Positions 11,000 to 49,168 of a stretch of 64,000 bases of DNA are shown here, in pieces. Where the stretch lies: contig CBDESZ010000031.1 in NCBI GenBank assembly GCA_965242725.1, positions 64,001-128,000 of the forward strand, given 5' to 3'. The DNA comes from Alkalispirochaeta sp. (GTDB lineage Bacteria; Spirochaetota; Spirochaetia; DSM-27196; Alkalispirochaetaceae). The notes below the pieces were generated by a model. It was not told the origin of the DNA and made no database searches. It saw only the letters and a list, made by a program, of their open reading frames with translations. The position numbers and the translations under genes were made by a program. The first letter of the stretch is position 1, and the number at the start of each line of letters is the position of its first letter.

Positions 11000-11021
11000 T
11001 TTCCCTCCGAGATTGTTGTGA

Positions 11022-11032
11022 TTATCAGACAA
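11022..11032. promoter_or_regulatory. shared operator-like motif TTATCAGACAA, copy upstream of iolE paralog 1
   Basis: Exact 11-mer also at 17666, 42608 and, reversed, 48391. Confidence 0.65.
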
Positions 11033-17594: not shown

Positions 17595-17665
17595 ATTATT
17601 AAATTTTTGTTGGTCAATGTGACCGAAAAAACCGGTTGAAAATTATCGAATGAGTGATTTTCATT

Positions 17666-17689
17666 TTATCAGACAATCTGTTCTTGACA
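17666..17689. promoter_or_regulatory. shared operator-like motif TTATCAGACAA next to a TTGACA -35 element of the ABC operon
   Basis: Motif at 17666-17676, TTGACA at 17684-17689. Confidence 0.6.
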
Positions 17690-29167: not shown

Positions 29168-29179
29168 GCGCTGCCGTCG

Positions 29180-29209
29180 GGCCGCCCGGAAGATCCCGGG
29201 CGGCCTTTT
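29180..29209 (+). terminator. intrinsic terminator
   Basis: GGCCGCCCGG-aagatc-CCGGGCGGCC followed by TTTT. Confidence 0.8.
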
Positions 29210-29240
29210 ACATTCCATCAAAATATGGTTTGCAAAATGA

Positions 29241-29278
29241 TGCAAACGATTGCAAAATGCTCGTTGTCGTAGTAGGAT
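29241..29278 (+). promoter_or_regulatory. promoter of the iolE-D-C-B-G operon with an overlapping LacI-type operator
   Basis: Palindrome TGCAAACGATTGCA (29241-29254) overlaps TTGCAA-17 bp-TAGGAT. Confidence 0.65.
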
Positions 29279-29298
29279 GACCTGAAAAGGAGAATCCA

Positions 29299-30195: not shown

Positions 30196-30205
30196 TAAGG
30201 GGTGA

Positions 30206-32074: not shown

Positions 32075-32075
32075 G

Positions 32076-33092
32076 ATGGCCTCATTTCCGCTGGCCGTTC
32101 CGTCCGGGCGGACACGCGACTGTGTCACCTTTGGAAGGGCCAACATGGACCTCTATACCCAGAGTGGTCGCTCCATAGAGGAAACGCCGGTATTTGCCAA
32201 ATCGGTCGGCGGTACTCCTGCGAATATCGCCGCGGCGATGGCGCGTCTCGGCATGAAAGTGGGTATGATTACCCGCGCCGCCGCCGATCCCATCGGCCGT
32301 TTTGTCGTTGAGTCGCTGCAGCGGCTGGGTGTCGATACGTCGCACATCGTCTTTGATCACAGCGGCGCCCGCACGAGCATCGCCTTTGCCGAGACGCGGA
32401 GCGCCGGTTCAAATACGGTTCTCTACCGGAATAACGCGGCCGATCTTCTCGTTAACCCGACGGACATTGATGCAGAGTATATCCGGTCAACGGCGATGCT
32501 CCTCCTTTCCGGTACGGCGTTATCTGAGTCCCCGTCGCGGGACGCAGCGATGCTCGCGGTAGGCATTGCCCGGAAAGCCGGAACGCTTATTGCACTGGAT
32601 ATTGACTTCAGACCCTACTCGTGGCGCAACCGCGAGTCGGCGTCGGTTGCCCTCATGTTTGCGGCGGAATCCTGCGACATCGTGATCGGTACCAGGGAGG
32701 AGTTTGACGTACTGGAACTGGTCTACGGAAATGACGCTATCGCCGACAGAGACCGGGACGCCTTAACCGCGCGGCGCCTGATTGAGGCCGGAAACTCCGT
32801 CGTCGTCGTGAAACGGGGAGAGGATGGATCCACCGCATACACTGCAACGGGCAGGACGGTACAAGGACCGGTGTTTCCCGTCGTCCCGGCAAAGGTGTAC
32901 GGAGCCGGAGACGCCTTTGCAGGCGCGTTGCTCGCACGTCTCCTAGTTGGTGCTGAACTCGACGAGGCTTTGACGGCGGGAGCGGCAAACGCTTCAATAA
33001 ATATTTCCAGAACCCGGTGCGCCGAAGATATGGCCACATGGGAAGAACTTGTACAATTCATCAAGGAGAAGAACTATGCCGTATCACATTAG
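32076..33092 (+). CDS. iolC: 5-dehydro-2-deoxygluconokinase (PfkB family, single domain)
   Basis: GRANMDLY, VGGTPANIA, DIDFRPYSW, GAGDAF. Confidence 0.9.
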   Translation: MASFPLAVPSGRTRDCVTFGRANMDLYTQSGRSIEETPVFAKSVGGTPANIAAAMARLGMKVGMITRAAADPIGRFVVESLQRLGVDTSHIVFDHSGARTSIAFAETRSAGSNTVLYRNNAADLLVNPTDIDAEYIRSTAMLLLSGTALSESPSRDAAMLAVGIARKAGTLIALDIDFRPYSWRNRESASVALMFAAESCDIVIGTREEFDVLELVYGNDAIADRDRDALTARRLIEAGNSVVVVKRGEDGSTAYTATGRTVQGPVFPVVPAKVYGAGDAFAGALLARLLVGAELDEALTAGAANASINISRTRCAEDMATWEELVQFIKEKNYAVSH

Positions 33093-33921
33093 GCCTTATA
33101 ACAATGAGAACAGGCCGGTTATCGATGTAGACAACAACTGGACGCCCCTGATCTATTTCAACGACATACGTCTTGCTTCGGGTATGTCCTATTCCCATCG
33201 CCTGGAAGAACACGAGTCTGTCTGTGTGGTTGTATCGGGTACGGTACATATAGAGGTTGAAGGCGTCAGATTTGAAAGTGTGGGAAAGAGGGAACATCTC
33301 TGGGCCGGCAAGCCTGATTCGGTATATGTACCGCCCGGGTTCAAAGCGACAATCACCGCGGCGGGTGACGGCGCCGAGGTCTTCGTTGCCGGCGGGCAAA
33401 CGGGAGGTGGCAAAGAACCATTTCGGGTTACACCTGATGATGTCGATACCGTCCAATATGGAAGCGACGACACCAAGACGCACCGTCGTATTTACCACAT
33501 CCTCGGAAAAAACGTTGAAGGGCACACGGGGAACCTTCTTGTAAGTGAGCTTTTTACCGTCGGAGCGGGAGGGTGGTCGGGATTTCCGCCGCACAAGCAT
33601 CACATCGAACGACCGCCGGTGGAAAGCGATTTTGAGGAGGCATTTCACTACCGCTTTAACCCTGATCACGGATTCGGTGCGCAGTTTGCGTATATCGGCG
33701 ATGACGATTTCGGGCCTGTATACCATGTAAAACACGGGAGTACCATTCTGCTTGATAAGAGTTACCATCCCTCCGTTGCAGCGCCGGGCTATGAGATGTA
33801 CTACTTTACGATCCTTGCGGGACGTAACCGACGCTCCCTGATTCAATATTTCCACCCCGATCATGAGTACCAGGTCCATACCATCCCGGGGCTCAAAGAC
33901 ATGATCGCAAAGTTCAAGTAG
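33076..33921 (+). CDS. iolB: 5-deoxy-glucuronate isomerase
   Basis: KduI/IolB cupin motifs WSGFPPHKH, EE..HYRF.P..GFG, YHP.VAAPGY. Confidence 0.88.
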   Translation: MPYHIRPYNNENRPVIDVDNNWTPLIYFNDIRLASGMSYSHRLEEHESVCVVVSGTVHIEVEGVRFESVGKREHLWAGKPDSVYVPPGFKATITAAGDGAEVFVAGGQTGGGKEPFRVTPDDVDTVQYGSDDTKTHRRIYHILGKNVEGHTGNLLVSELFTVGAGGWSGFPPHKHHIERPPVESDFEEAFHYRFNPDHGFGAQFAYIGDDDFGPVYHVKHGSTILLDKSYHPSVAAPGYEMYYFTILAGRNRRSLIQYFHPDHEYQVHTIPGLKDMIAKFK

Positions 33922-33937
33922 TAAAGGAGACAACGAT

Positions 33938-34951
33938 ATGCAGGAAGTCAGACTCGGAATCGTCGGCCTCGGTCGACTGGGCAAACGGCACGCGGAAAAC
34001 CTGCGTTATCGCGTACCGGGAGCACAACTCGTTGCGGCGTGTAGCGTCGTACCTGATGAACTCGATTGGGCGAGAACCAAACTGGGTGTGAAAAAGACTT
34101 ACGATTCCTACGACGAAATGCTCGGCGACGATGAGGTTGATGCGGTCTTTCTCGTCTCTACCTCGAGCGTCCATGCAGAGCAGATTATGGCGGGACTCGC
34201 GGCGGGAAAACACGTTTTTTCGGAAAAACCGATGGGCGTCACTATCGAGGAGTGCCTCGAAGTGGAACGGGCCGTCGCCTCGGCTCCCGAGCTCCATTTC
34301 CAGCTCGGTTTTGTCCGCCGCTTTGATCCGAGCCTCGCATACGCCAAGCAAAAGATTGACGAGGGCGCTATCGGTGAACCCTTCCTCGTTCGGGCCCAAA
34401 CGGTCGATACAGATGAATTTGCTGAGTTTCAGATAAAATTTGTACCCACATCGGGCGGAATCTTCATGGACATGAACTCCCACGACATCGATCTTGCGCG
34501 CTGGTTCATCGGGGCGGAAATAAAGAGCGTCTACGCGATTGGCGGGAGCTATGTGCATCGAGGTTTTGCAGAGGTGAACGACGCGGACAACACCGTTGCG
34601 CTCTGCCGGTTTGAAGACGGGAAGATGGCCGTCATTTCGGCGAGCCGTACCGCGTTTCACGGCCACGATACGCACACCGAGATAACCGGTTCCAAAGGAA
34701 TTCTCAAGATCGGTATGACCCCTTCAAAAAATCGCGTGGAAATATTTGATACTGAAGGCGCGCGTGTCGAGTGCGTCCAGGACTTTTTTGAACGATTTCA
34801 CGAGGGGTTCCTTCTGGAAGCGCAGAGTTTTGTAAGCGGAATCATGAACGGAGTCAAGCCCTCGATTTTTGCGACCGACGGGACAAAGGCGACGGAAGTG
34901 GGGTTTGCCCTGACAAAATCATTCAAGGAGAACAGGGTCGTCGAATTGTGA
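33938..34951 (+). CDS. iolG: inositol 2-dehydrogenase-like oxidoreductase
   Basis: GLGRLG, SEKP, GFVRRFD, SGGIFMDM..HDID. Confidence 0.8.
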   Translation: MQEVRLGIVGLGRLGKRHAENLRYRVPGAQLVAACSVVPDELDWARTKLGVKKTYDSYDEMLGDDEVDAVFLVSTSSVHAEQIMAGLAAGKHVFSEKPMGVTIEECLEVERAVASAPELHFQLGFVRRFDPSLAYAKQKIDEGAIGEPFLVRAQTVDTDEFAEFQIKFVPTSGGIFMDMNSHDIDLARWFIGAEIKSVYAIGGSYVHRGFAEVNDADNTVALCRFEDGKMAVISASRTAFHGHDTHTEITGSKGILKIGMTPSKNRVEIFDTEGARVECVQDFFERFHEGFLLEAQSFVSGIMNGVKPSIFATDGTKATEVGFALTKSFKENRVVEL

Positions 34952-36016: not shown

Positions 36017-36982
36017 TCATAGATTTGCCTCCGACAGGGCGGCCAGACCGGATGCGGTTAATCCGTTCTCCTTGAGGAGGAATGCGTGGTCGCCCAGTTT
36101 CTGGAACTTGTCGCCCAGACTTGCCATGACCTGTCGGGGTGCATTGGAGAAACCCGCCTTGTACTCGGCGACTGCGCTGCCGAGTCCACCTATGGGTGAG
36201 TGCTCCTCAACCGTTACAACGAGCCTGTTTTCCGCAAATACGGAATCGAGCATGTCGGTATCCAGAGGTTTTACCGTGTGCATATCGATTACACGTGTCG
36301 AAATACCCCTGGACTCAAGGATCTCCGCCGCGCCGACGGATTCAGACAGGAGAGAGCCGCAGGAGATCAACGCGACATCGGTACCCTTTCGGTATTCGAT
36401 AGCTCTTCCTATTTGAAAATCAAAATCGTCCTGGTACATCACCGGAAAGCCGGGTCCTCCGGTCAGTCGGATATATACCGGTCCATCGTGATCGGCGGCG
36501 GCACGTAACGCTTTGTGAACCGTCAGCGGATCAGACGGCGCAATGACGGTAAAGTTGGGAATTGCCCGGGTCACAGCTATGTCATCCATCGCATAGTGTG
36601 TATTGCCAAGAGGGCCGAAGCGGACACCCGCCTCAATCGAGACAACTGTGGCTTTCAGATTCATATAGGCGAGGGTGTCCCGCATCTGCTCGGCAGTGCG
36701 CATAGGCACGATCGCCGCGAGGGCAACGGCAAACGGCAGTATTCCCTCGACGGCGAGGCCCGCGGAAAAATCGATAAGGTTTTGCTCTGCGATACCGACG
36801 TCAAAAAACCGATCAGGATAGGTGTCTCTGAATCCGGTGAGTCTGGCGGTAGGGGTGAGGTCGGCCGTTACGGTGACCATTTCCGGCCGTTCAGCGGCGA
36901 GCATCACCAGGGTGTCGCCCAATACATTTCGATGGCCCAGGCGGGACCACTCCTGCAGTTGTTCTGCAGACACCTTTGTCAT
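36017..36982 (-). CDS. split transketolase, C-terminal (pyrimidine-binding) subunit
   Basis: DVGIAEQN, GNTHYAMDD, PVYIRL, HTVKPLD, EEHS..GGLGS. Confidence 0.9.
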   Translation of the reverse strand: MTKVSAEQLQEWSRLGHRNVLGDTLVMLAAERPEMVTVTADLTPTARLTGFRDTYPDRFFDVGIAEQNLIDFSAGLAVEGILPFAVALAAIVPMRTAEQMRDTLAYMNLKATVVSIEAGVRFGPLGNTHYAMDDIAVTRAIPNFTVIAPSDPLTVHKALRAAADHDGPVYIRLTGGPGFPVMYQDDFDFQIGRAIEYRKGTDVALISCGSLLSESVGAAEILESRGISTRVIDMHTVKPLDTDMLDSVFAENRLVVTVEEHSPIGGLGSAVAEYKAGFSNAPRQVMASLGDKFQKLGDHAFLLKENGLTASGLAALSEANL

Positions 36983-36998
36983 AGCAGCTTCTCGGCCG

Positions 36999-37835
36999 TC
37001 ATTCATCGTTGAGCTCCTTCATCGCCGTCTCGTAAAATTCTTTTGGTAATGATCGGGCATGCCATTCCAGGCTGTCCTCCATAAAGGAGATTCCTTTACC
37101 TTTTGTGGTGTCGGCGATAATCACACGGGGTTTTTCACTTACTGCGTCTCTCATTTTCCTGAGAGCATCGATAACGTCGGACACCGAGTTTCCATGGCGT
37201 ACTACCAGAACATCCCAACCGGCTGCGCCCCAGAGCGCCTCGATATCGATGTTCATGATTTCCTTTGTCTTACCGGCCAGTTGAACACCATTGCGGTCAA
37301 CGATCGCTACCAGGTTGTTCAGCTCATTCTTTGCGGCGTTCATCGCCGACTCCCAGACGAGGCCCTCGTTGCATTCTCCGTCGCCGACAAGACAAAAGAT
37401 GTTGTGCGTTTCACCTTTCATCTTCGCCGCTTTTGCCATTCCGCAGGCGACGGAAAATCCGTGTCCCAGAGATCCGGAGGAGATTTCGATACCGTATTGC
37501 ACGTTGCGGCTCGGGTGTCCTGATAGAAAACTGCCGTCGGCCTTAAAGGTGTACATTTGCTCCCTGGTGATATATCCGCTTTCCACCAGTGCGCTGTAGT
37601 AGGAAAGACATGCGTGTCCTTTGCTTTGGACAAACCGATCCCGTTGCGGCCACCGGGGATTCCCGGGATCGTGGTTCATAATGCCAAAAAAAAGTCCGGC
37701 TACAATCTCAATACTGGAGAGGGCGGGTCCAAAATGGGCTCCCCGGTCGCCGGCGACGTAGCCCATTTCAATGACGTTCCGACGCATCTTCCGTGTAATG
37801 TCTTCAATCCGTGTAATCGTCGCTTGATCGACCAT
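36999..37835 (-). CDS. split transketolase, N-terminal (ThDP-binding) subunit
   Basis: AHFG..LS, DRFVQSKGHA, GHP, GSLGHG, GDGECNEG..N, TTKGKG, WH. Confidence 0.92.
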   Translation of the reverse strand: MVDQATITRIEDITRKMRRNVIEMGYVAGDRGAHFGPALSSIEIVAGLFFGIMNHDPGNPRWPQRDRFVQSKGHACLSYYSALVESGYITREQMYTFKADGSFLSGHPSRNVQYGIEISSGSLGHGFSVACGMAKAAKMKGETHNIFCLVGDGECNEGLVWESAMNAAKNELNNLVAIVDRNGVQLAGKTKEIMNIDIEALWGAAGWDVLVVRHGNSVSDVIDALRKMRDAVSEKPRVIIADTTKGKGISFMEDSLEWHARSLPKEFYETAMKELNDE

Positions 37836-37857
37836 TATATGATTCTCCTTGTTTCGT

Positions 37858-38748
37858 TTATCTTTGTTCCGCAATGGTGTAGAGATGCCCGCTGTAACGT
37901 CCCATTGGTATCACTCTGGCTTGTTCCCGGGCGAGTTCAATCAACCGGGGGACAGCCACCCCTGTGGTGTAGCCCATTTCCGACAACATGAATGCGAGGT
38001 CTTCTGTCGCCAGGTTTCCCGACGCACCTGGCGCAAAGGGACATCCTCCCAGCCCGCCTAATGTGGACTGGACCTTTCGGACGCCCCGTTCAATTGCGGC
38101 GAGGGTATTGACCATTCCCATGTTGCGGGTGTCGTGAATATGAATCTGGAGATCCAATGACGGGTACTCCGCCTGGAGTGCGTCGATCGTTTCTCGCACC
38201 TGGGCGGGGTTTGCGATGCCGATCGTGTCGCAGAGCGTTACCGACGTGATCCCGCTTTGCACGTACGGCTTAAGAAAGGGTATGACGTCTTCAGGACCCT
38301 TTTTCCCTTCAAAGGGACAACCGAATGAGGTCGCCAGGTCGAGTCCGACCTCGAGATCGGGGAGGGTGTCCCGTATCCCCGACAGTTCCGCGAAGGATTC
38401 CCCATGGAATCGCCGGGTATTGGCGCGATTATGACTTTCACTGACGGATACGACAAAGGAAACCCATCTCATGCCCGAATCCCACGCCGCCTGTGCTCCC
38501 CGCAAGTTGGGAACCAGGGCAAACAGGTCGGCATCGGGATATTTTTCGATACATCTTTCCGTCAGCTCCCGGGCGTCTTTCATCTGGGGAACGGCCCTGG
38601 GGCTCACAAAGGAGGTGATTTGAAGATGTTTCAATCCGGAGGCGATCAGCCCGTCGATTATGCGAAGCTTGGTTTCCAGTGGAATGTATTCATCAACGTT
38701 CTGGAATCCGTCGCGGGGTCCGACTTCATAGAGTTCGACCGTCTTCAT
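37858..38748 (-). CDS. HMG-CoA lyase family protein
   Basis: EVGPRDGFQN, SFVSP..VPQM, FGCPFEG, DTIG, HIHDTR, GLGGCPFAPGASGN. Confidence 0.92.
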   Translation of the reverse strand: MKTVELYEVGPRDGFQNVDEYIPLETKLRIIDGLIASGLKHLQITSFVSPRAVPQMKDARELTERCIEKYPDADLFALVPNLRGAQAAWDSGMRWVSFVVSVSESHNRANTRRFHGESFAELSGIRDTLPDLEVGLDLATSFGCPFEGKKGPEDVIPFLKPYVQSGITSVTLCDTIGIANPAQVRETIDALQAEYPSLDLQIHIHDTRNMGMVNTLAAIERGVRKVQSTLGGLGGCPFAPGASGNLATEDLAFMLSEMGYTTGVAVPRLIELAREQARVIPMGRYSGHLYTIAEQR

Positions 38749-40210
38749 TCCGTTTCTCCATCATCGATCCACTCTCCTTGAGTCTCCGGTACCAGGCAAA
38801 GGCTTCTTCCGGAAGCTGTGGGTGGTGGCCGCCACAGTGTCGGCGGGCATTCTGAAGGTACGACGACAATTGATCGCGGTACGAGTCGGAAGCACATCGT
38901 GCAATAATCGCGTCCGATCGCTCGTGGTCATCCAGGCCGCGCAGATCCGCCACGCCATTCTCGGTTACGACGATATCGACGTCGTGCTCACCGATATCCT
39001 GGTGGGATACCATGGGCACGATATTGGAAATCGCACCGCCTTTTGCCGTGGAGGGAATGAGAATTACCGAGAGAGCTGCGTTCCGGGCAAAGCCCGCTCC
39101 GCCGCCGATGCCGTTCACCACCCGGCTGCCGGCGATATGACTCGAGTTTACGTTCCCATAGATATCAATTTCGATACCGGTATTAAGGGCAACCACGCCG
39201 AGGCGACCGACGACCTCCGCACTGTTGGTGATATCGCCATTGCGAATTACAAGGTGGTTGTGAATTTCCGGTATGTCCCGGAGGATTTCTTCAACCCGTT
39301 CGCTCATTCCCAGCCCACCGGTAGAAAGGGCGGTTGCCTTTCCCGACGCCAGAAGTTCCATAACCGGCTCAGTAATTCCGCCACAGAAAAATTGCAGGTC
39401 ATGGAACGCCGATTGACGGAAGGCATCGACAACGGAATCGGCGATACTCCCGAAACCGGTCTGAATCGGCGGAAGGGTATTGCCGAGATTCCGGTATTCT
39501 CCTTCCAGGAAGGTGAAGAGATGATCGGCGATACGCTTTGTGAGGGAAGTACCCTTCGGGGGCGTTCCCAGGCGTTCCGGTATGTTGGTTTCCACGACAT
39601 GGGAAATCCGGTTCCAATCAACCGGAATTCCACCGCTGCCGATGCGCTCATTGACTCGGGTAAGAGGAATCGGCCTGGTGTACGGCGGTGCCAGGGGAAT
39701 GTACACGTCATGTAACGATTTGAGCTTCTTCGGCTGTGCCGCATTTATTTCGACGATAATCTCATCCGCCGCCGCGGTGAGGTAGTGCGTCATGCCGACG
39801 GAGCTGGTCGGGATCAGGTTGTTCTCGTCGTCAAAGCCCAGGGCTTCGACGACGGCGATATCTATTCTGCCGAAGTTGCCGTCCCGGAGCATTCGCGGCA
39901 TGTTACACATCTGCTGCTCCACGTACCGCACCGATCCTCTGTTTGTCTGAGACGCCAGTGTCTTGTCGGCGACCATCGGCGTCCGTCGTGCGATAATTTC
40001 CGCCGCGGCGAGTTTTTCATCGAGCCAGGGTACGTTGGCACCGGTAAGGAGATTGATAGACAGCTCTTCTCCCCCCTTTTTTCGTGCCGTCAGTTCCTCC
40101 ACAACTGCTTTTGGATAACCGGCCATGGCGTAACCACTCATCGCGACGGTCATTCCGCTTCGGATGGTTGCGACGGCCTCCTGTGCGGTCGAAATATCTA
40201 TATTCCTCAT
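38726..40210 (-). CDS. acetyl-CoA hydrolase/transferase (AarC-like fold) protein with atypical active site
   Basis: GYPK, PIQTG.G, EIDIYGNVNSSH, NGIGG, IVPMVSH.D..EHDVDIVVTENG.ADLRGL. Confidence 0.85.
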   Translation of the reverse strand: MRNIDISTAQEAVATIRSGMTVAMSGYAMAGYPKAVVEELTARKKGGEELSINLLTGANVPWLDEKLAAAEIIARRTPMVADKTLASQTNRGSVRYVEQQMCNMPRMLRDGNFGRIDIAVVEALGFDDENNLIPTSSVGMTHYLTAAADEIIVEINAAQPKKLKSLHDVYIPLAPPYTRPIPLTRVNERIGSGGIPVDWNRISHVVETNIPERLGTPPKGTSLTKRIADHLFTFLEGEYRNLGNTLPPIQTGFGSIADSVVDAFRQSAFHDLQFFCGGITEPVMELLASGKATALSTGGLGMSERVEEILRDIPEIHNHLVIRNGDITNSAEVVGRLGVVALNTGIEIDIYGNVNSSHIAGSRVVNGIGGGAGFARNAALSVILIPSTAKGGAISNIVPMVSHQDIGEHDVDIVVTENGVADLRGLDDHERSDAIIARCASDSYRDQLSSYLQNARRHCGGHHPQLPEEAFAWYRRLKESGSMMEKRNEDGRTL

Positions 40211-40230
40211 GGGTACCCTTGGACGATTTC

Positions 40231-41643
40231 TCACGACCGCGGCGTGAACCCGGAGAACAGCTCTTCATCCGATGGTTCGTGGTTGGGTATTTCCCGGATG
40301 ACCCATGTATTGTTCATGTAATGTTTGAGAGCAATGTTCTCCGACGCGATGTTTCCGCCCCAGGTGCCGCAACCAAGGGAACTGGTAAAGGGCATTCCGC
40401 TGACCCAACTCCCCGTATTGGTCGCGCCCTGGGGCAGGTTCACGACGACACGAGTGGTATAGGTTCTTTCTGCGACTTTCGTCACGTTCTCCGTGGTATT
40501 GGAAAATATTCCGCACGAGTGGCCGGCCCCTGAAGAGGCGTGATTCTCGTTTATTATTCGTATTGCATCGTCGATTCCCGTGCTTTTGTAGACAGTCGTG
40601 ACGAGACTCATTTTTTCTCCGGCAAACGGAGTTGAATCGCCGGTAACGTCCTCTTCGACCAGCAGAAACGATGTCCCTTCGGGAACGTCAATACCTGCAA
40701 TTTCCGCGATATTCCTGACCGACGATGCGACGATATCGCGATTTATGACGCGACTATCAGGCCACTCGGGCCAGATTGCCTTTTTCAGTTTTTCTTTTTC
40801 ATCCGAATTCAGGAGGTGGGCGCCGACCTTTTTAAACTCACCGAGCATGTCGGTGTACACTGATTCGTCGATGACGACGCTGTTATCGCATGAACAACCG
40901 GCGGCGAGGTCAAATGTCTTGCTGATCTTGATCTTGGCCGCAGCATCTGCGAGGTCCGCCGTCCGGTCAACCACGATGACGGAATTGCCGGCACCGACTC
41001 CGAATGCGGGTGTGCCTGAGCTGTAGGCGGCACGGACCATCTGGGCACCGCCCGTCGCCATAACCAAATCACACTGTTTCATGAGTTCGCCGGTTATCGG
41101 GACCGAAGGTTCTTTGATGGTTATGAACAGATCTTCCGGAGCGTCATACTTTTTCATCACGCCTCGAATGAGGTCAACGGTCTTGGTGGCGGTACCTTTG
41201 CTTCGCGGATGCGGTGAGAAGATTATGGCATCACGGGCCTTTACGGCAAATATCGCCTGTATGAGAGGATGCATCTCCGCCTGGGTACTTGGAACAAGTG
41301 AACCTATCACTCCCACCGGTTTTGTCAGTCTGACGAGTCCGCGCTCGGGTATCTCTTCTACAATGCCGACCGTCCTGACGTTCTTCACATCGTAAAAGAC
41401 GCCGCGACATTTCACGGAGACCTTGGTGAATTTTGACTGAACGTCACCGAGCCGACACTCCTCATAGGAGTACTCGGCAAGCTCCCTGACCAAGTTATCG
41501 TTGGCCGCAATTTCCCAGGTGATGGCTGCGGCAAGTTCATCCACCTTTGCCTGTGAGAATGTTTCAGCAATACGTTGCGCCTTCCGTGCCCGTTTCATCA
41601 ACGCCGATACTATTGCCGCAGCGTCTGCTCGGTTTTGTTCCAT
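40231..41643 (-). CDS. CoA-acylating aldehyde dehydrogenase (SucD/SauS/EutE-like), copy 1
   Basis: KPVGVIG, SPHP, ATGG..MV.AAYSSG.PA.GVGAGN, KTFD....C, EKMS, GH, LGCGTWG.N. Confidence 0.88.
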   Translation of the reverse strand: MEQNRADAAAIVSALMKRARKAQRIAETFSQAKVDELAAAITWEIAANDNLVRELAEYSYEECRLGDVQSKFTKVSVKCRGVFYDVKNVRTVGIVEEIPERGLVRLTKPVGVIGSLVPSTQAEMHPLIQAIFAVKARDAIIFSPHPRSKGTATKTVDLIRGVMKKYDAPEDLFITIKEPSVPITGELMKQCDLVMATGGAQMVRAAYSSGTPAFGVGAGNSVIVVDRTADLADAAAKIKISKTFDLAAGCSCDNSVVIDESVYTDMLGEFKKVGAHLLNSDEKEKLKKAIWPEWPDSRVINRDIVASSVRNIAEIAGIDVPEGTSFLLVEEDVTGDSTPFAGEKMSLVTTVYKSTGIDDAIRIINENHASSGAGHSCGIFSNTTENVTKVAERTYTTRVVVNLPQGATNTGSWVSGMPFTSSLGCGTWGGNIASENIALKHYMNNTWVIREIPNHEPSDEELFSGFTPRS

Positions 41644-41680
41644 TTCTGCCTCCAACTTCCGTAAAGTACGAATTATGAAA

Positions 41681-41751: not shown

Positions 41752-41787
41752 GAAGAATATTAGGTTATGTTGTATCGTGTATATGCT

Positions 41788-42558
41788 ATGAAAGCTCAAT
41801 CGATGAACCGGGTCGAAGAGATCAGGACCCTTTTAAAGAGAAACGGTAAGGTCTATGTCGCGGACCTGAGCGCAGAGTTGGGTGTGAGCGAAGTATCAAT
41901 ACGGAAGTATCTGTCCAGAATTGAACGGGAAGGGTTTGCAACACGATTTTATGGGGGTGCGGCGCTGAAAGATCCCGCTCCCGCAAACAACGCCTTGCAG
42001 GAAATCTACGATGATCCAATTCGAACGGCCCTTGCCCGGGCAGCACGTAACCATGTTGTAGACGGTGATTCCATATTTGTCGGTTCCGGTAGGTCGTGTT
42101 GCGCCCTGGCCCACGAGCTGACCGGGTTTACCGACCTGACCGTATTCACAAACAATATTACTGCCCTTCCGGAGCTTATTACCAACGCCTCACGGGTATA
42201 TCTGATCGGCGGGGAAGTCACCAGCACCGACAATCATACTTTGTTTTCGAGCTGGGAGTCGCCGCACGCACAAATGGAAAATATCTTCGTAAACAAGGCG
42301 TTTACAAGTGTGTCCGGAATTGACCTGAAAGCGGGACTGACCGTTGATTCCGTTATCAGCACCCGTATTTTCAAACAGATACCCACGATGGCGCATCGCT
42401 GGTATTTGATTGCCGATGTAAAAAAGTTTGACAAGATTTCGATTTATCCCGTCGCGGAGCTCGAACAAATACACACATTAATCACCGACACACTCCCGGA
42501 CCACTATGCAGAAAGACTTCGTGCGATTCGCGTCGAAATCGTTCAAAGTCCACGGTAG
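41788..42558 (+). CDS. DeoR/GlpR-family transcriptional regulator
   Basis: V.DLS..LGVSEVSIRKYL, R.YGGA, GDSIF..SG, VFTN, LIGG. Confidence 0.9.
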   Translation: MKAQSMNRVEEIRTLLKRNGKVYVADLSAELGVSEVSIRKYLSRIEREGFATRFYGGAALKDPAPANNALQEIYDDPIRTALARAARNHVVDGDSIFVGSGRSCCALAHELTGFTDLTVFTNNITALPELITNASRVYLIGGEVTSTDNHTLFSSWESPHAQMENIFVNKAFTSVSGIDLKAGLTVDSVISTRIFKQIPTMAHRWYLIADVKKFDKISIYPVAELEQIHTLITDTLPDHYAERLRAIRVEIVQSPR

Positions 42559-42571: not shown

Positions 42572-42618
42572 TTGACAGCTCCAGATTCCATGGATACAAT
42601 GTTCTTATTATCAGACAA
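42572..42618 (+). promoter_or_regulatory. sigma70 promoter of iolB2-iolD2 with operator-like motif near +1
   Basis: TTGACA (42572)-17 bp-TACAAT (42595), then TTATTATCAGACAA (42605-42618). Confidence 0.8.
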
Positions 42619-42659: not shown

Positions 42660-43514
42660 GTGATCATACGGAGGAATGGGGAACCCTTTTCCCTTGGATA
42701 TACTTCAATAACCGAGTTGGACGGGAAAAACGGCGACATGCTCATGGACTTTGGTATTCTCAAACTCGCCGGCGGCGAATCCGTTTCCAGCGATGACCAA
42801 AAAGAACGGGCTTTCCTGTTAATGACCGGGAATGTCCGTTTTCAATGGAGCGACCCCGACGGACATCAGTCGGTTCAGATTACACGGAACAGCGTCCTCG
42901 ATGAAGAGCCGACAGCCTTGCACGTGCCTGCGGGTGCCGACGTGACGGTGACGTGTATCGACGGGGAGGCAGAGATCGCGATACAGAAAGTCAAGAACTC
43001 CAAATCCTTCGCGCCCCGTCTCTGGCGTCCCGGAGACTACCGTTCAGACCGTTTTGGTGAAGGAACGCTTCAGGACACGAGCACCCGTACCGTTCGGACG
43101 ATATTTGACGCTGCGACTGCACCGGAAAGTGAAATGGTGCTGGGTGAAGTGATAAACCATCCCGGCAAGTGGTCCAGTTATCCGCCCCACGACCACGCCC
43201 AGCCGGAAGTGTATCACTATCGGTTTTTTCCGAGTCATGGATGGGGCCACGCCGAGCAGGAAGATGATGTCTTTAAAGTCAAAAACGGCGACAGTTATGC
43301 TATTCCGCCAGGTGTGACCCATTCGCAGTGTGCCGCTCCGGGATATACAATGTACTATATCTGGATGATTCCGCACCTTCCCGACGACCGTTTTGGTCCC
43401 GACTCGCGGATTTTTCGCAAGGAACACATGTGGGTTATGGATGGGGACGCTCCGATTTGGCCGGATGCGCCTCTCGAGACGGTTCTTGCGTATCAAACGA
43501 ATCTTAAACGATAA
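42660..43514 (+). CDS. iolB: 5-deoxy-glucuronate isomerase, second and divergent copy
   Basis: R.VRTIFD, LGEV...PG.WSSYPPH.H, EVYHYRF.P..G, H.QCAAPGY.MYYIW. Confidence 0.85.
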   Translation: MIIRRNGEPFSLGYTSITELDGKNGDMLMDFGILKLAGGESVSSDDQKERAFLLMTGNVRFQWSDPDGHQSVQITRNSVLDEEPTALHVPAGADVTVTCIDGEAEIAIQKVKNSKSFAPRLWRPGDYRSDRFGEGTLQDTSTRTVRTIFDAATAPESEMVLGEVINHPGKWSSYPPHDHAQPEVYHYRFFPSHGWGHAEQEDDVFKVKNGDSYAIPPGVTHSQCAAPGYTMYYIWMIPHLPDDRFGPDSRIFRKEHMWVMDGDAPIWPDAPLETVLAYQTNLKR

Positions 43515-43535: not shown

Positions 43536-45443
43536 GTGAAGGTGAAAACGGTACGATTGACGACCGCACAGGCGTTATTACGCTTTCTGGATAATCAGTA
43601 TATCGAGGTTGACGGCGAAGAGACCAAATTTGTCGAAGGTATTTTCGGGATATTTGGCCATGGTAATGTCGTCGGCTTTGGCGAAGCAATTGTCGAGACA
43701 GAGCATAATTTGATATTCCGCCAGGGAAAGAATGAGCAGGCTATGGCGCACGCTGCCATTGGGTTTGCAAAGCAGAATAATCGGCGAAAAATCTATGCGG
43801 TTACCAGTTCGGTTGGTCCCGGTGCCTTGAATATGGTGACCGCCGCAGGGACCGCGACGGTGAATCGAATACCGGTCCTCTTTCTTCCCGGCGACACATA
43901 CGCGGACCGACAGCCTGATCCGGTTCTTCAACAGGTAGAGCATGGGAACAATCCCAATATCACGGCGAATGATGCGTTTCAGGCGGTGAGTACCTATTGG
44001 GACCGCGTATCCCGTCCTGAACAACTCATGAGTTCTCTGATTAACGCCATGCGTGTACTGACCGACCCGGCGGAAACCGGCGCGGTGACGATCGGCCTTC
44101 CTCAGGATGCCCAAGCGGAAAGTTACGACTATCCTGAAGAATTCTTCCGAAAACGCGTTCACCATGTCGAGAGGCGCCCGCTGACCGACAATGCGATCCA
44201 GCGGGCGGCGGAACTCATTGGAGCAAGCAGGAAGCCAATTATGGTCTGCGGCGGCGGTGTTCGCTACTCCGAAGCCGGCGATGTGTTTGCGGCGTTTGCG
44301 GAGGAGTTTGGTCTTCCTTTCGGTGAAACTCAGGCGGGGAAGGGCACCGTATCGTGGGATCATCCGTGGAATCTTGGTGGTATCGGCGTTACCGGCGGCG
44401 AGGCCGCCAATGTGATTGCGAAGGACGCCGATCTTCTTATAGCCGTGGGTACCCGTCTCGGTGATTTTACCACGGCAAGTAAGGGAGCTTTTCAGAACTC
44501 AGATTTAAAAGTGCTCACTATCAATGCAAATAGATTTGACTCATATAAGATGGATGCAGAACCATTTGTGGCCGACGCCCGTATGGCGTTGACGCAGCTC
44601 GCTGAAGCCCTGAGGCACAAGAAGTACACCAGCGGATATTCCGATGAAGTACGCAAGGTTCGTGAAGCATGGAACGCTGAAGTCGACCGTCTCTATACAA
44701 CGGATGATCCCGGTGGACTGAGTCAGACCCGCGTTCTGGGAGAGTTGAACGAGAAATTGCTGAATCCGGACGATGTGGTCGTCAGTGCTTCGGGCAGCCT
44801 TCCCGGAGACATGCAGCGCGTCTGGCGGCCTCGCCAACGCGATACCTATCATATGGAGTACGGTTTCAGTTGCATGGGATATGAGGTAAATGCCGCATAC
44901 GGCGCCCAGATCGCAGCCCCCGACCGGAATGTGTACGCTCTTGTCGGCGACGGCGGATTTGTCATGCTGCACAGTGAATTACTCTCCGCGGTTCAGGAGG
45001 GCATTCCATTTACCATTATCCTCTTTGACAACCATGGCTTTCAGGTTATCGATAACCTGCAAACCAACCAGGGAATATCCAGTTATGCCAATGAGTGGCG
45101 GAAACGGACCACCGATGCGGTGAAATCGACAGTTCCACCCTACGGAGGGCACGATAGAAAGCTTCTGGGCGAGTATCTGGAAGTTGATTACGCCGGAATC
45201 GCGGCAGGATATGGTGCCATCGGCATCACGGTTCGAACAATTGAAGAGCTTGCCGAAGCGATCAGGTCAACCCGAAACGTCGGACGACCGGTGTTGATTG
45301 ATGTGAAAGTCACACAGAAATCGATGACTCACGGCTACGAAAGCTGGTGGCGCGTCGGCGTACCGGAAGTATCGGCAAGTACCAAGGTTCAGGAAGCCCG
45401 CAAGGACCTGGACGACCATATGGAGACCGCCCGGAAGTTCTGA
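43536..45443 (+). CDS. iolD: 3D-(3,5/4)-trihydroxycyclohexane-1,2-dione acylhydrolase, second copy
   Basis: IFGHGN, PDPVLQQ, YHMEYGFSCMGYE, GDGG, WWRVG. Collinear with 30206. Confidence 0.93.
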   Translation: MKVKTVRLTTAQALLRFLDNQYIEVDGEETKFVEGIFGIFGHGNVVGFGEAIVETEHNLIFRQGKNEQAMAHAAIGFAKQNNRRKIYAVTSSVGPGALNMVTAAGTATVNRIPVLFLPGDTYADRQPDPVLQQVEHGNNPNITANDAFQAVSTYWDRVSRPEQLMSSLINAMRVLTDPAETGAVTIGLPQDAQAESYDYPEEFFRKRVHHVERRPLTDNAIQRAAELIGASRKPIMVCGGGVRYSEAGDVFAAFAEEFGLPFGETQAGKGTVSWDHPWNLGGIGVTGGEAANVIAKDADLLIAVGTRLGDFTTASKGAFQNSDLKVLTINANRFDSYKMDAEPFVADARMALTQLAEALRHKKYTSGYSDEVRKVREAWNAEVDRLYTTDDPGGLSQTRVLGELNEKLLNPDDVVVSASGSLPGDMQRVWRPRQRDTYHMEYGFSCMGYEVNAAYGAQIAAPDRNVYALVGDGGFVMLHSELLSAVQEGIPFTIILFDNHGFQVIDNLQTNQGISSYANEWRKRTTDAVKSTVPPYGGHDRKLLGEYLEVDYAGIAAGYGAIGITVRTIEELAEAIRSTRNVGRPVLIDVKVTQKSMTHGYESWWRVGVPEVSASTKVQEARKDLDDHMETARKF

Positions 45444-45625: not shown

Positions 45626-45667
45626 AAAAGAAAAGGCGTCGCACCTGTATCAGGTTACGACGCCTTT
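45626..45667 (-). terminator. intrinsic terminator of the transaldolase-ALDH operon
   Basis: AAAGGCGTCG..ACCTG-tat-CAGGT..CGACGCCTTT stem with a + strand A-tract (U-tract on the minus strand). Confidence 0.7.
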
Positions 45668-45694: not shown

Positions 45695-47083
45695 TCACTT
45701 TCCGTACGTTTCCCAATGTTTCCCGAATATTTTGTTTTCGTCGGGGATTACCGGAGGTATTGGTTTTGAAACCCACGTTACATTACGGAAGTGCCAGTAC
45801 GATATGTTCTCTGAGGTGATATTTCCTCCCCATGAACCACATCCAAGGGTGAGTGAAAAGGGCATACCGTTGTCGTAGTTGCCGCTATTGGCCGCACTTT
45901 GGGCCTGGCGTACCATGATACGGCTCACCGGAGCTTTCATTGCGAGTTCTTCCACTCGATCGTCCCTGGTTGTGTGAATACCGCATGAATGGCCGTAGCC
46001 GGAAAACCCGGTGATGTCCTTGACGTACTGGATCGCCTTTTGAAAACCGCTGTACTTCCAGAGGGTCATCACGACCGAAAGTTTCTCACCGGCAAAAAGC
46101 TCGTCTGGACCTACTTCTGATGCCTCCACCATGATAAACCGTGTTTCGGGCGGCACGGAAAATCCGGCAAGTTCCGCAATTTTGGGCGCCGGTTGCGCAA
46201 CGATCGCCCTGTTGAGCGCGTGCCCGTCTGGCCACATGGTGCGTTTCAGTTTTTCTTTTTCCTCGGGGCTGCAGAGATATCCATTGAGCTTCCGGAACTC
46301 CTCGAGCATTGTATCGTAAATGGTCGATTCTATGACGACCGAATTTTCGCTGGAGCAGCTCGTGGCGTTGTCAAAGGTTTTACCCAGAAAAATTTTCTTT
46401 GCGGCATCTTCCAGGTCCGCCGTTTCATCGACAATAACCGTGGCGTTACCCGCGCCGACGCCATAGGCTGGTGTACCGCTGGAATAGGCCGCCTTGACCA
46501 TACCGGGGCCGCCGGTGGCGACTACGAGGTCAACGGCCGCCATCAATTCCTGGGTCAGTTGCACTGAGGGTTCCTCAATCCACTGTACCAGGTCTTCCGG
46601 GCCACCCATTTTTCTGATACCGTCCCGGAGTTTCTGCGCTGCGAGACCGGAACAACCCTTACCGCTCGGATGCGGCGCAAAAATCACGGCATTTCGGTTT
46701 TTAAGGATCGACAGTCCGTTACAACCAACTGATGAAGTGGGATTTGTGACCGGAATGAGCGCACCGACGACACCAACGGGCTTGATTACCTTCATGAGTC
46801 CCTTTTCGGGGATTTCCTCAAGAATACCGACAGACTTTACGCCGTCGAGATCCCGCAGTGTTCCGAGAATTTTCTTCTGATGCTTGAGCAGTTTATCTTC
46901 GTATACGCCGAGCTTTGTCTCTTTATGGGCGAGGGTTGCACATTCAACGGCGCTCTCCTTTTTGTAGACTTCCCAACCCGCTGCCGCAACGAGCTCGTCG
47001 ATTTGTTCCTGCGACCAGGAATCCACTATTTTCTGGGCCGCCCGGGCGCGGGCCAGTTTTTCCTGAATGATACTCATGTTCAT
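45695..47083 (-). CDS. CoA-acylating aldehyde dehydrogenase (SauS/SucD-like), copy 2
   Basis: KPVGVVG..PVTNP, GVGAGN, KTFDNATSCSSENS, EKLS, GHSCGIH, LGCGSWGGN. Confidence 0.9.
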   Translation of the reverse strand: MNMSIIQEKLARARAAQKIVDSWSQEQIDELVAAAGWEVYKKESAVECATLAHKETKLGVYEDKLLKHQKKILGTLRDLDGVKSVGILEEIPEKGLMKVIKPVGVVGALIPVTNPTSSVGCNGLSILKNRNAVIFAPHPSGKGCSGLAAQKLRDGIRKMGGPEDLVQWIEEPSVQLTQELMAAVDLVVATGGPGMVKAAYSSGTPAYGVGAGNATVIVDETADLEDAAKKIFLGKTFDNATSCSSENSVVIESTIYDTMLEEFRKLNGYLCSPEEKEKLKRTMWPDGHALNRAIVAQPAPKIAELAGFSVPPETRFIMVEASEVGPDELFAGEKLSVVMTLWKYSGFQKAIQYVKDITGFSGYGHSCGIHTTRDDRVEELAMKAPVSRIMVRQAQSAANSGNYDNGMPFSLTLGCGSWGGNITSENISYWHFRNVTWVSKPIPPVIPDENKIFGKHWETYGK

Positions 47084-47161
47084 ACTCCTCAATAACACGC
47101 GCGCGACCGGCTGCCGATGGCGACAAATCGCGAGCGTTCATAATCCTATTGCGTTATCCGG

Positions 47162-48250
47162 TTATTTGTCCGGATTTGGAACCATAAGGTCACGGATGAT
47201 ACGGCAGAGTTCGTCGTACCCGCCGATGAACTGTCTGAGCGTACGCGCCGTTGCACCATACGAGTCAAATTCTTCCGGTTTCATACCGTCCGGTTCATAT
47301 GCCCGTCGGAAGTCGACAAACTTCTTAGAGAGTTCTTTCACGATCGCCGGGTCAACCGGAGTGTGAATCCGGTCCCTGCGGTCCTTTACGGTCACATCGG
47401 ATTCGTTAAACCGTTTTGCCCATTTGTACGGGATTGTACAAACGACGTCACCACCGATGAACTCTGACCAGTGATAGTGGTTGCGATATGCAGCCGCCAA
47501 TAGACGTGTGCGATATCCGCGCTCTTCATATATCCGGTACGCGTTCTTGAACACCGCAACACCCGCCCACTCCAGGTAGTCCGCGTTGGTGATAATATTT
47601 TCCTTATTGGCAATTACTTTCAGCCAATCGTCCGTGCGTCCGACCATAATTGTACACACCGGCGCCATCGTTGAGATGTCGTGTCCGTCCGCTTCTCGGC
47701 GCGTTAATCCCCGTTCCACCGCTTCGGCGACGGCAATCGCCTGAGGCGCGGTAAATGACACCGTCGCGTTTACGCTCACTCCGTAATACGTTGCCTCTTC
47801 GATAGCTTTTACACCCGCCTCGGTGACCGGCATTTTCACGTTGAGATTAGGGATGACCTCGGCAAAATGGAGAGCCTGTTTTACCATTGCGTCGGCGTCA
47901 CGGTAAAACTTGGCGTTGGTTTGCATGGAAAGTCGGCCTTTTTTGCCGTTTGTTGCCTTGAATGTCGGCTCCAGGAGCTTTGCCGCTTTCACGGCCATCT
48001 CGTCTATCAACTTCCAGGCAATGTCGTCTTCCGTTGCGGTGGGCATTTCCGTGATAAGATCCCGGATTCTGCCCTCCCAGGCGGCGTAGTCTTTTTGAAG
48101 CACATTTACCACAATCACGGGATTGGTCGTAGCCCCTACCGCGCCATGTTCAATTCCATATTCCAGTTCGGAAATAGAACTGGAATCATTCCAATAATCG
48201 GTCGGTGTGGTCTCGCTCATCTCGTGCAGCGGACTTTTAAAGTCGCCCAT
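47162..48250 (-). CDS. transaldolase-family protein (non-canonical active site)
   Basis: W.DS, GATTNP, Schiff-base VKMP, VNATVSF, VGR.DD, YRN. Confidence 0.85.
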   Translation of the reverse strand: MGDFKSPLHEMSETTPTDYWNDSSSISELEYGIEHGAVGATTNPVIVVNVLQKDYAAWEGRIRDLITEMPTATEDDIAWKLIDEMAVKAAKLLEPTFKATNGKKGRLSMQTNAKFYRDADAMVKQALHFAEVIPNLNVKMPVTEAGVKAIEEATYYGVSVNATVSFTAPQAIAVAEAVERGLTRREADGHDISTMAPVCTIMVGRTDDWLKVIANKENIITNADYLEWAGVAVFKNAYRIYEERGYRTRLLAAAYRNHYHWSEFIGGDVVCTIPYKWAKRFNESDVTVKDRRDRIHTPVDPAIVKELSKKFVDFRRAYEPDGMKPEEFDSYGATARTLRQFIGGYDELCRIIRDLMVPNPDK

Positions 48251-48318: not shown

Positions 48319-48404
48319 TGATCAGACAAAAGAATTATATCATATCGCGTTGGCGTGTCAACAAAATTAGCTGTTGTTCAGTTAATCACATTGTCTGATA
48401 ATAA
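48319..48404 (-). promoter_or_regulatory. promoter of the transaldolase-ALDH operon flanked by two operator-like motifs
   Basis: Minus-strand TTGACA (48361-48356)-16 bp-TATAAT (48339-48334) with extended TG. TGATCAGACAA at 48319 and TTGTCTGATAATAA at 48391. Confidence 0.75.
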
Positions 48405-48444: not shown

Positions 48445-49168
48445 GTGACGTGCGACAAATCGCGAAGCAGTTCAGCACATGAATTCATACGGGAGCAAGT
48501 CTCTTTCGCGGTGGTGAAGAACGCGTCAATCAACAACATGACAAGGGAAAGCTCACCGCCCGGGAGCGGTATCACCTCATTTCGGTACGCTACGAAGCAG
48601 GAATGTATGGACGGTGTCCGGCGCCTCCTATCGTATATTCCTTCCTCAAACCAGGAACAACTACCCATTGTGCCCACGGAAGATTCCGTTGATCGAACCA
48701 CGCCTGAATTGTTGGAAATGGTACCGGACGAGGAGCGACGCGGTTATGACGTCCGGAATGTAATTGCATCGGTCTTTGATCGTGAGAGCTTCATGGAGGT
48801 CCATCGAGACTATGCACCAAATGTGGTTATTGGATTTGCCCGTCTGGCAGGCCGAACGTTGGGGATCTTTGCAAATCAACCGAACCTGCTTGCGACTGCG
48901 CTGGACATCAACTTCAACGATAAAAGCGTCCGTTTTATCCGGTTCTGAGACGCATTCAACGTTCCGATCATTTCCCTTGTCGACGTTCCCGGTTTTCTGC
49001 CCGGTATCGGCGGACATTGCCGTGATGGGTGCCGAAGGTGCTGCCGATATACTCTTTCGGCGGGAAATCGCTGATGCGGAAGATCCGGAAACGACCAGGG
49101 CGGAAAAAATACGGGAGTGTAAAGAGGAGGTGTTGGATACGTCTTTCTCACCTCCGGGGCTGGAATGA
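48445..49168 (+). pseudogene. decayed acyl-CoA carboxyltransferase (PccB/MmdA-like) remnant
   Basis: Fragments GGEERVNQQHDKGKLTARER, LLSYIPSSN..YDVR.VI..GFARL.G..ANQP..RFIRF*DAFNVP..VDVPGFLPG and IAVMGAEGAADILFR, with a stop codon and large deletions. Confidence 0.85.

Follow-up and report, generated by a model that had tools for sequence, protein, structure and literature searches.

Introduction

Phytate-derived inositol is a major plant-derived carbon source. In B. subtilis, the pathway of myo-inositol catabolism consists of IolG, IolE, IolD, IolB, IolC, IolJ and IolA. The first four of these enzymes open the ring to give 5-dehydro-2-deoxy-D-gluconate (DKG); IolC is a kinase, IolJ is a metal-dependent class II aldolase, and IolA is a dehydrogenase which decarboxylates malonate semialdehyde to acetyl-coenzyme A (acetyl-CoA). 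Here we describe a two-gene operon in a stretch of 64,000 nucleotides from the spirochaete Alkalispirochaeta sp. (assembly GCA_965242725.1, contig CBDESZ010000031.1, positions 64,001 to 128,000); this whole stretch is referred to as the window, and all coordinates are positions within it. The operon encodes a divergent transaldolase-family protein, P0001, and a CoA-acylating dehydrogenase, P0002. These two proteins most likely stand in for the kinase, the aldolase and the last dehydrogenase of the textbook pathway.

Surveys repeatedly find bacteria which carry iolG, iolE, iolD and iolB while lacking both iolC and iolJ. In Megamonas metagenome-assembled genomes (MAGs) this combination has been reported, and the excerpted text of the report leaves the gap unexplained (PMC13617567). 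A transaldolase that cleaves DKG in its unphosphorylated form would fill it. For D. welbionis, a class II aldolase acting on a phosphorylated intermediate, and not a transaldolase, is proposed in the excerpt of the relevant report (PMC13311982). A literature search of Creative Commons-licensed PMC papers and bioRxiv preprints found no transaldolase in inositol catabolism and no SucD- or SauS-type enzyme assigned to malonate semialdehyde.

Excerpts of three published papers describe enzymes with relevant chemistry. The sulfofructose transaldolase SftT acts on an unphosphorylated ketose and glyceraldehyde 3-phosphate (GAP), producing fructose 6-phosphate and an anionic three-carbon aldehyde which is then oxidised (PMC7491151). 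In the transaldolase TalB, the single change F178Y is sufficient to yield a dihydroxyacetone aldolase, while R181 forms part of the phosphate site (PMC3962226). In the succinyl-CoA reductase SucD of C. kluyveri, a Lys-x-x-Lys helix and the Ser following the catalytic Cys hold the distal carboxylate (PMC10249356).

Results

The operon lies on the minus strand at 48250-45695. P0001 is encoded first (362 aa, from the open reading frame (ORF) at 47162-48250), followed by P0002 (467 aa, from the ORF at 45695-47098), and the pair converges on iolD2, with 251 bp separating it from the iolD2 end at 45443. A preliminary description of this DNA, made without database searches, had regarded the two ORFs as an operon converging on iolB2-iolD2, and its coordinates were reproduced exactly. 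For P0002 they hold for the ORF, whose first start is GTG 47098; the start codon is probably ATG 47077, which sits 8 nt past a GAGGAG sequence. The gap between the two genes is consequently 63-84 nt, by choice of P0002 start codon.

The operon probably supplies an alternative to the lower half of myo-inositol catabolism, in which unphosphorylated DKG and GAP would be converted to fructose 6-phosphate and malonate semialdehyde, and the latter to malonyl-CoA. In the first step, which is shown by homology, IolG, IolE, IolD and IolB open the ring to DKG; iolB2-iolD2 would thus make the proposed substrate. Lys139 of P0001 would then form a Schiff base with the keto end of unphosphorylated DKG, which has the same CH2OH-CO-CHOH-CHOH arrangement as fructose 6-phosphate. 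Carbons 1-3 would leave as malonate semialdehyde, and the dihydroxyacetone unit would pass to GAP, giving fructose 6-phosphate. A step of this kind would need neither the kinase IolC nor the aldolase IolJ, and P0001 is proposed to be a DKG:GAP dihydroxyacetone transferase. P0002 would use CoA and NAD(P)+ to oxidise malonate semialdehyde, yielding malonyl-CoA, whereas IolA decarboxylates the semialdehyde to acetyl-CoA. Finally, a biotin-dependent carboxyltransferase and a Na+-pumping decarboxylase, for which an intact operon is found on contig C2, may convert malonyl-CoA to acetyl-CoA.

P0001 is a member of the transaldolase/fructose-6-phosphate aldolase (FSA) superfamily, matching PF00923 with 153.7 bits (cut-off 27). 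Its AlphaFold2 model has a pLDDT (predicted local distance difference test) score of 92.4; the top Foldseek match is 3r5e (TM 0.80, E 1.5e-16), and TalB entries, with which P0001 is 26% identical in sequence, are matched with a TM of 0.68. The best PDB sequence match amounts to 73 bits. P0001 nevertheless falls below all curated transaldolase cut-offs (NF002881, 119.2 bits against 367; TIGR00876, 74.9 against 233.75; TIGR00874, 58.7 against 396.2) and below that of the FSA model TIGR00875 (54.1 bits against 245.95), and at 362 aa it exceeds the short form of ~220 aa. The translation contains the motifs GATTNP, GRLSMQ, NVKMP, TIMVGR and AAAYRN, among which are all those listed in the preliminary description (TTNP, the Schiff-base Lys, GRLSMQ, TIMVGR and AAYR). 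The reference motifs with which it had compared them were correct when checked on the TalB and FsaA sequences from NC_000913.

The active site was mapped by aligning P0001 to these E. coli TalB and FsaA sequences. The Schiff-base Lys, K139, corresponds to TalB K132 and FsaA K85 and is invariant in both alignments. P0001 also retains Asp22, Asn43, Asn161, Thr163 and both Arg residues of the TalB phosphate site: R205 falls in the R181 column, and R256 belongs to A254-Y255-R256, which aligns with TalB S226-F227-R228. Two positions stand apart, Q110, which aligns with TalB E96 and FsaA Q59, and M202, which occupies the TalB F178 column. The retained residues, Gln110 and Met202 are invariant in 15/15 aligned members of the clade. 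Either of two groups could be bound by the pair of Arg residues: a carboxylate, as found in DKG and malonate semialdehyde, or the phosphate on an acceptor, for instance GAP.

With Met rather than Tyr at the position of TalB F178, P0001 is more likely to transfer the three-carbon unit to an acceptor than to carry out free aldol cleavage. Were P0001 instead a true aldolase of the FSA kind, DKG would be cleaved without an acceptor, giving free dihydroxyacetone and malonate semialdehyde, the remainder of the pathway being as proposed above; its Gln110, aligned with FsaA Gln59 and not with TalB Glu96, points in this direction. P0001 has the Gln found in FSA at the Glu96 site, but it lacks the acid/base Tyr of FSA at the Phe178 site. 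FsaA is gapped at the motif around TalB F178 in our alignment, and its own Tyr is presumably located at this site. It is the change F178Y that makes TalB a dihydroxyacetone aldolase (PMC3962226, in excerpt), and P0001 with its 362 residues scores only 54 bits against a cut-off of 246 on the FSA model. In addition, no dihydroxyacetone kinase is present among the 30 commonest neighbour clusters of the clade. An acceptor-free aldolase is therefore considered unlikely, and P0001 is regarded in what follows as a transferase.

The genome contains three PF00923 genes, all with Gln at the site of P0001 Gln110, and no canonical Glu-type transaldolase. One of the two paralogues, on contig C11, is 57% identical to P0001 and shares its operon with genes for a transketolase of 752 aa and for a xanthine-dehydrogenase-family molybdenum aldehyde oxidoreductase with its FAD subunit (L108, 9091-15918). 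A GntR regulator is found near this paralogue, and the genes are arranged in the same way in a second spirochaete (G127, locus L107). The other paralogue, on contig C3, is 25% identical to P0001 and is likewise of the Gln type.

The translation of P0002 contains the KTFDNATSCSSENS loop, which the preliminary description had assigned to sulfoacetaldehyde/succinate-semialdehyde acylating enzymes. It shows the characters of a CoA-acylating aldehyde dehydrogenase, namely the Cys motif, a full-length match and equivalents of SucD Lys70 and Ser243. Among PDB entries, P0002 matches C. kluyveri SucD best (8cei; 336 bits over residues 10-443); in this alignment, CSSE is aligned to CSSE and VYEDKvaK to the VYEDKllK of P0002; a Ser follows the catalytic Cys. 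P0002 keeps the residues with which SucD binds a carboxylate and should therefore take an aldehyde with a distal anionic group. The best NCBIfam match is NF047625 (SauS), at 541.7 bits below the cut-off of 600; a paralogue at 40231-41655, 45% identical to P0002, scores 459.4 bits on the same model. The IolA model TIGR01722 was not among the matches of P0002 in the NCBIfam scan, and its replacement of IolA would be a functional one only.

Divergent from P0001 lies an MmdA-like carboxyltransferase pseudogene (48507..49132, +), which consists of three pieces in three frames. These match model positions 16-39, 219-371 (with a TGA) and 417-463 of 512, leaving ~225/512, and they are 63-70% identical to the intact carboxyltransferase on contig C2. 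The latter is part of a four-gene operon together with a small protein, a biotin carrier and the beta subunit of a Na+-translocating decarboxylase. In related loci, the P0002 homologue adjoins the transaldolase in five cases (L021, L023, L026, L028 and L100), and an MmdA-like carboxyltransferase is found in the same gene group in three of them (L023, L028 and L100). The presence of a carboxyltransferase partner in relatives implies that the product would be a carboxylated acyl-CoA, i.e. malonyl-CoA.

The operon is linked to ring-opening genes by a common operator word. Exact copies of the 14-mer TTATTATCAGACAA precede iolB2 (42605-42618, +) and P0001 (48391-48404, -), in agreement with the preliminary description, which had noted an operator motif common to the operon and iolB2-iolD2. 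Of these two genes, iolB2 (42660-43514, +) matches PF04962 KduI/IolB with 180 bits and TIGR04378 with 90 bits against a cut-off of 205, and iolD2 (43536-45443, +) matches TIGR04377 with 899 bits against a cut-off of 715. The operon promoter at 48334..48361 (-) has 12/12 consensus matches, with TTGACA, a 16-nt spacer and a TG-extended TATAAT, and is located 84 nt upstream of the P0001 start codon at 48250. The word at 48391..48404 sits just upstream of its -35 hexamer, and a second, inverted operator core, ATCAGACAA, lies just downstream of its -10 hexamer at 48321..48329 (+). With the words at 48391 and 48321 flanking the promoter, the arrangement resembles the layout of a repressor site. At the other end of the operon, a terminator-like hairpin with a T-run at 45634..45646 (-), ~50 nt past the P0002 stop, is a pattern match only.

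The 9-mer core of the operator is present in 5 copies in the window against 0.47 expected, a number reached in 0/100 shuffles. Across the whole genome (4.34 Mb) there are 4 copies of the 11-mer TTATCAGACAA, each of them within the window. Operator-like words are also found at 11019..11032 (+; 1 mismatch), upstream of a TauE/SafE-family membrane protein gene (11164-11925), and at 17663..17676 (+; 2 mismatches), where the genes of a sugar ABC transporter begin (17654-21351, identified by NCBIfam). The two 11-mer copies not accounted for by iolB2 and P0001 belong to the TauE/SafE-family gene and the ABC transporter. The DeoR-family regulator at 41767-42558 (+; NCBIfam AgaR/DeoR matches) is probably the protein to bind the operator, a candidate role suggested by its position only. 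A single repressor would then control the operon, iolB2-iolD2, the ABC transporter and the TauE-family gene through one operator word. Read as a palindrome, GTCTG-N7-CAGAC, the operator yielded 3 matches where 1.5 were expected; this reading was abandoned in favour of the direct word TTATTATCAGACAA.

A function in sulfonate metabolism, with a sulfofructose-type transaldolase and a SauS sulfoacetaldehyde dehydrogenase, would account for SauS being the best NCBIfam match of P0002 (541.7 bits) and for the operator word in front of a TauE/SafE-family gene; a sulfofructose transaldolase pathway does exist (PMC7491151, in excerpt). The SauS score is nevertheless below the cut-off, P0001 matches the sulfofructose transaldolase BmSF-TAL (8bc3) with only 29.1 bits over ~65 residues, and no sulfoquinovosidase or sulfoquinovose isomerase family was matched among the scanned ORFs of the window. 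Moreover, a carboxyltransferase partner is at odds with sulfoacetyl-CoA, and the partners of the clade across phyla are iolD, iolB and IolA. Sulfonate metabolism is thus the least probable of the explanations considered here, and a highly improbable one.

Relatives of P0001 are widespread and make up a large, highly conserved clade. All of the 8000 candidates scored in the homology search were significant, the best 120 of them at 65-87% identity, and the closest homologues come from Spirochaetaceae MAGs and Alkalispirochaeta (81-87%), among them an 81% identical protein of an Alkalispirochaeta isolate. At least 588 places in species-representative genomes encode a relative at 60-83% identity; these belong to Acidobacteriota, Spirochaetota, Chloroflexota, Bacteroidota and other phyla. 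Gene context was compared in the best 80 of these loci, by matching their ORFs to the proteins of the window (blastp, E <= 1e-15, at least half of the window protein aligned). In 40/80 loci iolD or iolB is present in the flank, a proportion which rises to 31/44 among loci whose two flanks each reach 5 kb or more. Counted singly, iolB neighbours the transaldolase in 36 of the 80, iolG in 33, iolE in 27 and an iolC-like gene in 2, and an IolA-type dehydrogenase cluster, the representative of which scores 561 bits on TIGR01722, is found in 26. The commonest partners of the clade are iolD, iolB and the IolA-type dehydrogenase. Conservation of iolB together with absence of iolC is the pattern expected if the enzyme takes DKG unphosphorylated.

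The 40 genomes behind the loci with iolD or iolB were then searched as a whole. IolC scores above its cut-off in 3 but not in the other 37, and because of this unphosphorylated DKG is favoured: it is most likely the substrate, instead of DKG 6-phosphate, and the enzyme would replace IolC as well as IolJ. The preliminary description had proposed that either compound is cleaved to release malonate semialdehyde; the cleavage is supported, its substrate is narrowed to DKG, and transfer is favoured over free cleavage. IolA is above its cut-off in 31 of the 40 genomes. A homologue of P0002 (49-91% identity) is encoded in 6/9 genomes without IolA and in 1/31 with it, so that P0002 homologues stand where IolA is missing, a correspondence which the preliminary description had suggested looking for; the remaining P0002 matches in these genomes are AdhE-type proteins of ~35-39% identity. 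The distribution of P0002 homologues is complementary to that of IolA.

The loci that have neither iolD nor iolB in the flank hold short-chain dehydrogenases/reductases, Zn-dependent alcohol dehydrogenases (Zn-ADH), GntR regulators, transporters and IolA-type aldehyde dehydrogenases. In two Spirochaetaceae/Spirochaetales MAGs, the transaldolase is associated with genes of another inositol route: IolN, IolO and Zn-ADH directly precede it in L025 (1602-5747), and an IolM-like gene directly follows it in L029 (9860-12141). A tree was built from 71 sequences, for which 68/80 loci were used and 12 were dropped, their transaldolase frame being <300 aa after trimming. Context labels are clustered on this tree but interleaved, the iolD/B label changing 14 times against 24 when shuffled. 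Because the labels interleave, no clean inositol-specific subclade is definable, and because the contexts are also mixed, the clade probably serves more than one keto-acid or else forms a module often unlinked from the ring-opening genes.

These contexts bear on a further alternative, in which P0001 acts on another non-phosphorylated keto-acid of the island and releases a different aldehyde, e.g. tartronate semialdehyde, for P0002. One candidate substrate is a product of the IolM/IolN/IolO branch, 5-keto-L-gluconate, tagaturonate or fructuronate for example. IolM, IolN and IolO are encoded in the window itself (4678-8880), L025 and L029 place the transaldolase beside such genes, half of the 80 loci have neither iolD nor iolB in the flank, and the C11 paralogue has a transketolase and a molybdenum aldehyde oxidoreductase as its neighbours. 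Against this, the exact operator word is common to iolB2-iolD2 and not to the IolM/N/O genes, the commonest partners are iolD, iolB and the IolA-type dehydrogenase, and having a carboxyltransferase as partner implies that the acyl-CoA is a carboxylated one, malonyl-CoA for example. We therefore assign this alternative a low probability, about the same as that of an acceptor-free aldolase, and retain DKG as the preferred substrate.

An even sample of 151 Spirochaetota genomes served as a control. IolD is above its cut-off in 8/151 and the transaldolase clade is present in 4/151, with the window genome belonging to both groups. None of the seven other IolD-positive genomes has a clade transaldolase and all seven have IolA; IolC is above its cut-off in six of them and scores 277 bits in the seventh. 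Four of these six IolC frames are ~640 aa long, the size of a kinase-aldolase fusion. In a sample of 101 Acidobacteriota genomes, three further genomes with IolD were found, of which one has the transaldolase and no IolC and two have neither.

An ordinary pentose-phosphate transaldolase that happens to lie near sugar genes, accompanied by a generic acetaldehyde or succinate-semialdehyde dehydrogenase, would be consistent with PF00923 membership and the transaldolase fold, and also with the lack of a canonical Glu-type enzyme in this genome, in which all three PF00923 genes are of the Gln type. However, a clade present in only 4/151 Spirochaetota genomes is not a housekeeping enzyme, and this reading is rejected for that reason. 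Furthermore, the catalytic Glu is replaced in 15/15 aligned members, P0001 scores far under every curated transaldolase cut-off, the clade is embedded in iolC-less iol clusters across phyla, and the operon has its operator in common with iolB2-iolD2. A housekeeping transaldolase is thus very improbable.

The genome to which the window belongs (4.34 Mb, 92% complete) has no IolA above the cut-off of TIGR01722, the best score being 326.7 bits against 448.5. It has no IolJ of either type and no kinase-aldolase fusion; its only class II aldolase is a housekeeping fructose-bisphosphate aldolase beside a mevalonate kinase gene. Canonical iolJ and iolA elsewhere in the genome, which the preliminary description had regarded as incompatible with its proposal, were thus not found in this 92% complete assembly. 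Its suggestion that P0002 makes malonyl-CoA in place of IolA gains support from the absence of IolA here and from the complementary distribution described above.

NCBIfam scans of the ORFs identify the window as a spirochaete inositol-catabolism island. A first canonical iol cluster occupies 27210-34951 (iolG, iolE, iolD1, iolC, iolB1, iolG), in which iolC, encoding 5-dehydro-2-deoxygluconokinase (32076-33092, +), matches TIGR04382 with 333.8 bits against a cut-off of 300. A Thermotoga-type set at 4678-8880 comprises IolM, an IolG-like protein, IolN and IolO. The IolM-like Zn-dehydrogenase gene of this set is split into overlapping ORFs at 4678-5196 and 5090-5743, each corresponding to one half of the IolM model, which may reflect a frameshift or a sequencing error.

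On the minus strand, 36017-41655 encodes a split transketolase, a protein resembling 3-hydroxy-3-methylglutaryl-CoA (HMG-CoA) lyase, a CoA-transferase of the succinyl-CoA:acetate type and an acylating aldehyde dehydrogenase. In the closest relative, L021, the genes of this operon (13432-21075) directly follow iolD and iolB on one strand. The group at 36017-41655 is a candidate for a transketolase (C2+C4) ending of the inositol pathway. Upstream of the transaldolase, L021 also encodes a GhrA-like glyoxylate/hydroxypyruvate reductase and a GlcD-like FAD oxidase (6838-9485), an arrangement that would make sense if the neighbouring transketolase-lyase operon produced glyoxylate.

Discussion

The interpretation put forward in the preliminary description is supported by all of the computational checks named above, and it remains a prediction. 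Several observations weigh against it. The catalytic Glu of TalB (Glu96) is missing from P0001, where Gln110 takes its place. The carboxyltransferase beside the operon is a pseudogene, and the TauE/SafE-family gene under the same operator word would also fit sulfonate pathways. The window genome is not kinase-free, since iolC is present at 32076-33092 even though the genome has no IolJ, and IolC is also present in 3/40 of the genomes which combine the transaldolase with iolD or iolB. Half of the loci compared (40/80) have neither gene in the flank, and in L025 and L029 the transaldolase is next to IolN, IolO or IolM-type genes instead. The three other clade-bearing Spirochaetota genomes have no IolD above the cut-off, and the clade stands there with an acylating dehydrogenase, or with a transketolase and a molybdenum aldehyde oxidoreductase. 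Finally, two Acidobacteriota genomes (G266 and G278) have IolD with neither transaldolase nor IolC; these may be incomplete MAGs or may represent yet another solution.

A broader reading takes the clade for a general family of transferases for non-phosphorylated keto-acids and the island for one with three endings for opened inositol. Three kinds of aldehyde-oxidising partner are seen near the clade: IolA-type enzymes, CoA-acylating enzymes and a molybdenum aldehyde oxidoreductase. In the first ending, an ATP-free C3+C3 transaldolase route would feed a Na+-pumping malonyl-CoA decarboxylase and so conserve energy. The second would be the C2+C4 transketolase route of 36017-41655, in which a four-carbon semialdehyde would become a CoA thioester to be split by the HMG-CoA-lyase-like enzyme, and the third would be the Thermotoga-type IolM/N/O route. 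We regard this broader reading as possible but doubtful, and the DKG:GAP transferase with its acylating partner remains the preferred one.

If this is correct, the operon would provide a new reaction for the transaldolase family. The acylating variant would also shift the energy balance of anaerobic inositol fermentation, because the carboxyl group would be kept for the sodium-pumping decarboxylase. Particular to the window are the coexistence of the operon with iolC, the transketolase operon and the IolM/N/O route, the exact operator link and the decayed carboxyltransferase.

Compared with known enzymes, P0001 has the fold, the Schiff-base Lys, the Asp, the Asn and the two phosphate-site Arg residues in common with TalB and FsaA. 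Its Gln/Met pair matches neither the Glu and Phe of TalB nor the Tyr that turns TalB into an aldolase. In function, P0001 would be closest to the sulfo-TAL pathway enzyme SftT, which follows the same logic as the reaction proposed for P0001, as far as the excerpt of its description goes (PMC7491151). BmSF-TAL (8bc3) belongs to the short-form branch of ~220 aa, matches P0001 with 29.1 bits and acts on another substrate in another pathway; since branch, substrate and pathway differ, the resemblance is likely to reflect convergent recruitment. P0002 resembles SucD (8cei) and SauS in being CoA-acylating and in having the catalytic Cys and the Lys and Ser for a distal anion (PMC10249356, in excerpt). 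It differs from them in falling under the SauS equivalog cut-off and in its context of inositol genes and carboxyltransferase, which points to a three-carbon substrate.

In comparison with the B. subtilis pathway, the upper half is alike, the window containing iolG, iolE, two iolD and two iolB genes, and the proposed three-carbon product, malonate semialdehyde, is the same. The lower halves would differ. The window genome lacks IolJ and IolA, and cleavage is proposed to take place on the unphosphorylated intermediate. A Schiff-base transferase would stand here in the place of the metal-dependent class II aldolase of B. subtilis, and the final step is proposed to keep, as malonyl-CoA, the carboxyl group that is lost in B. 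subtilis.

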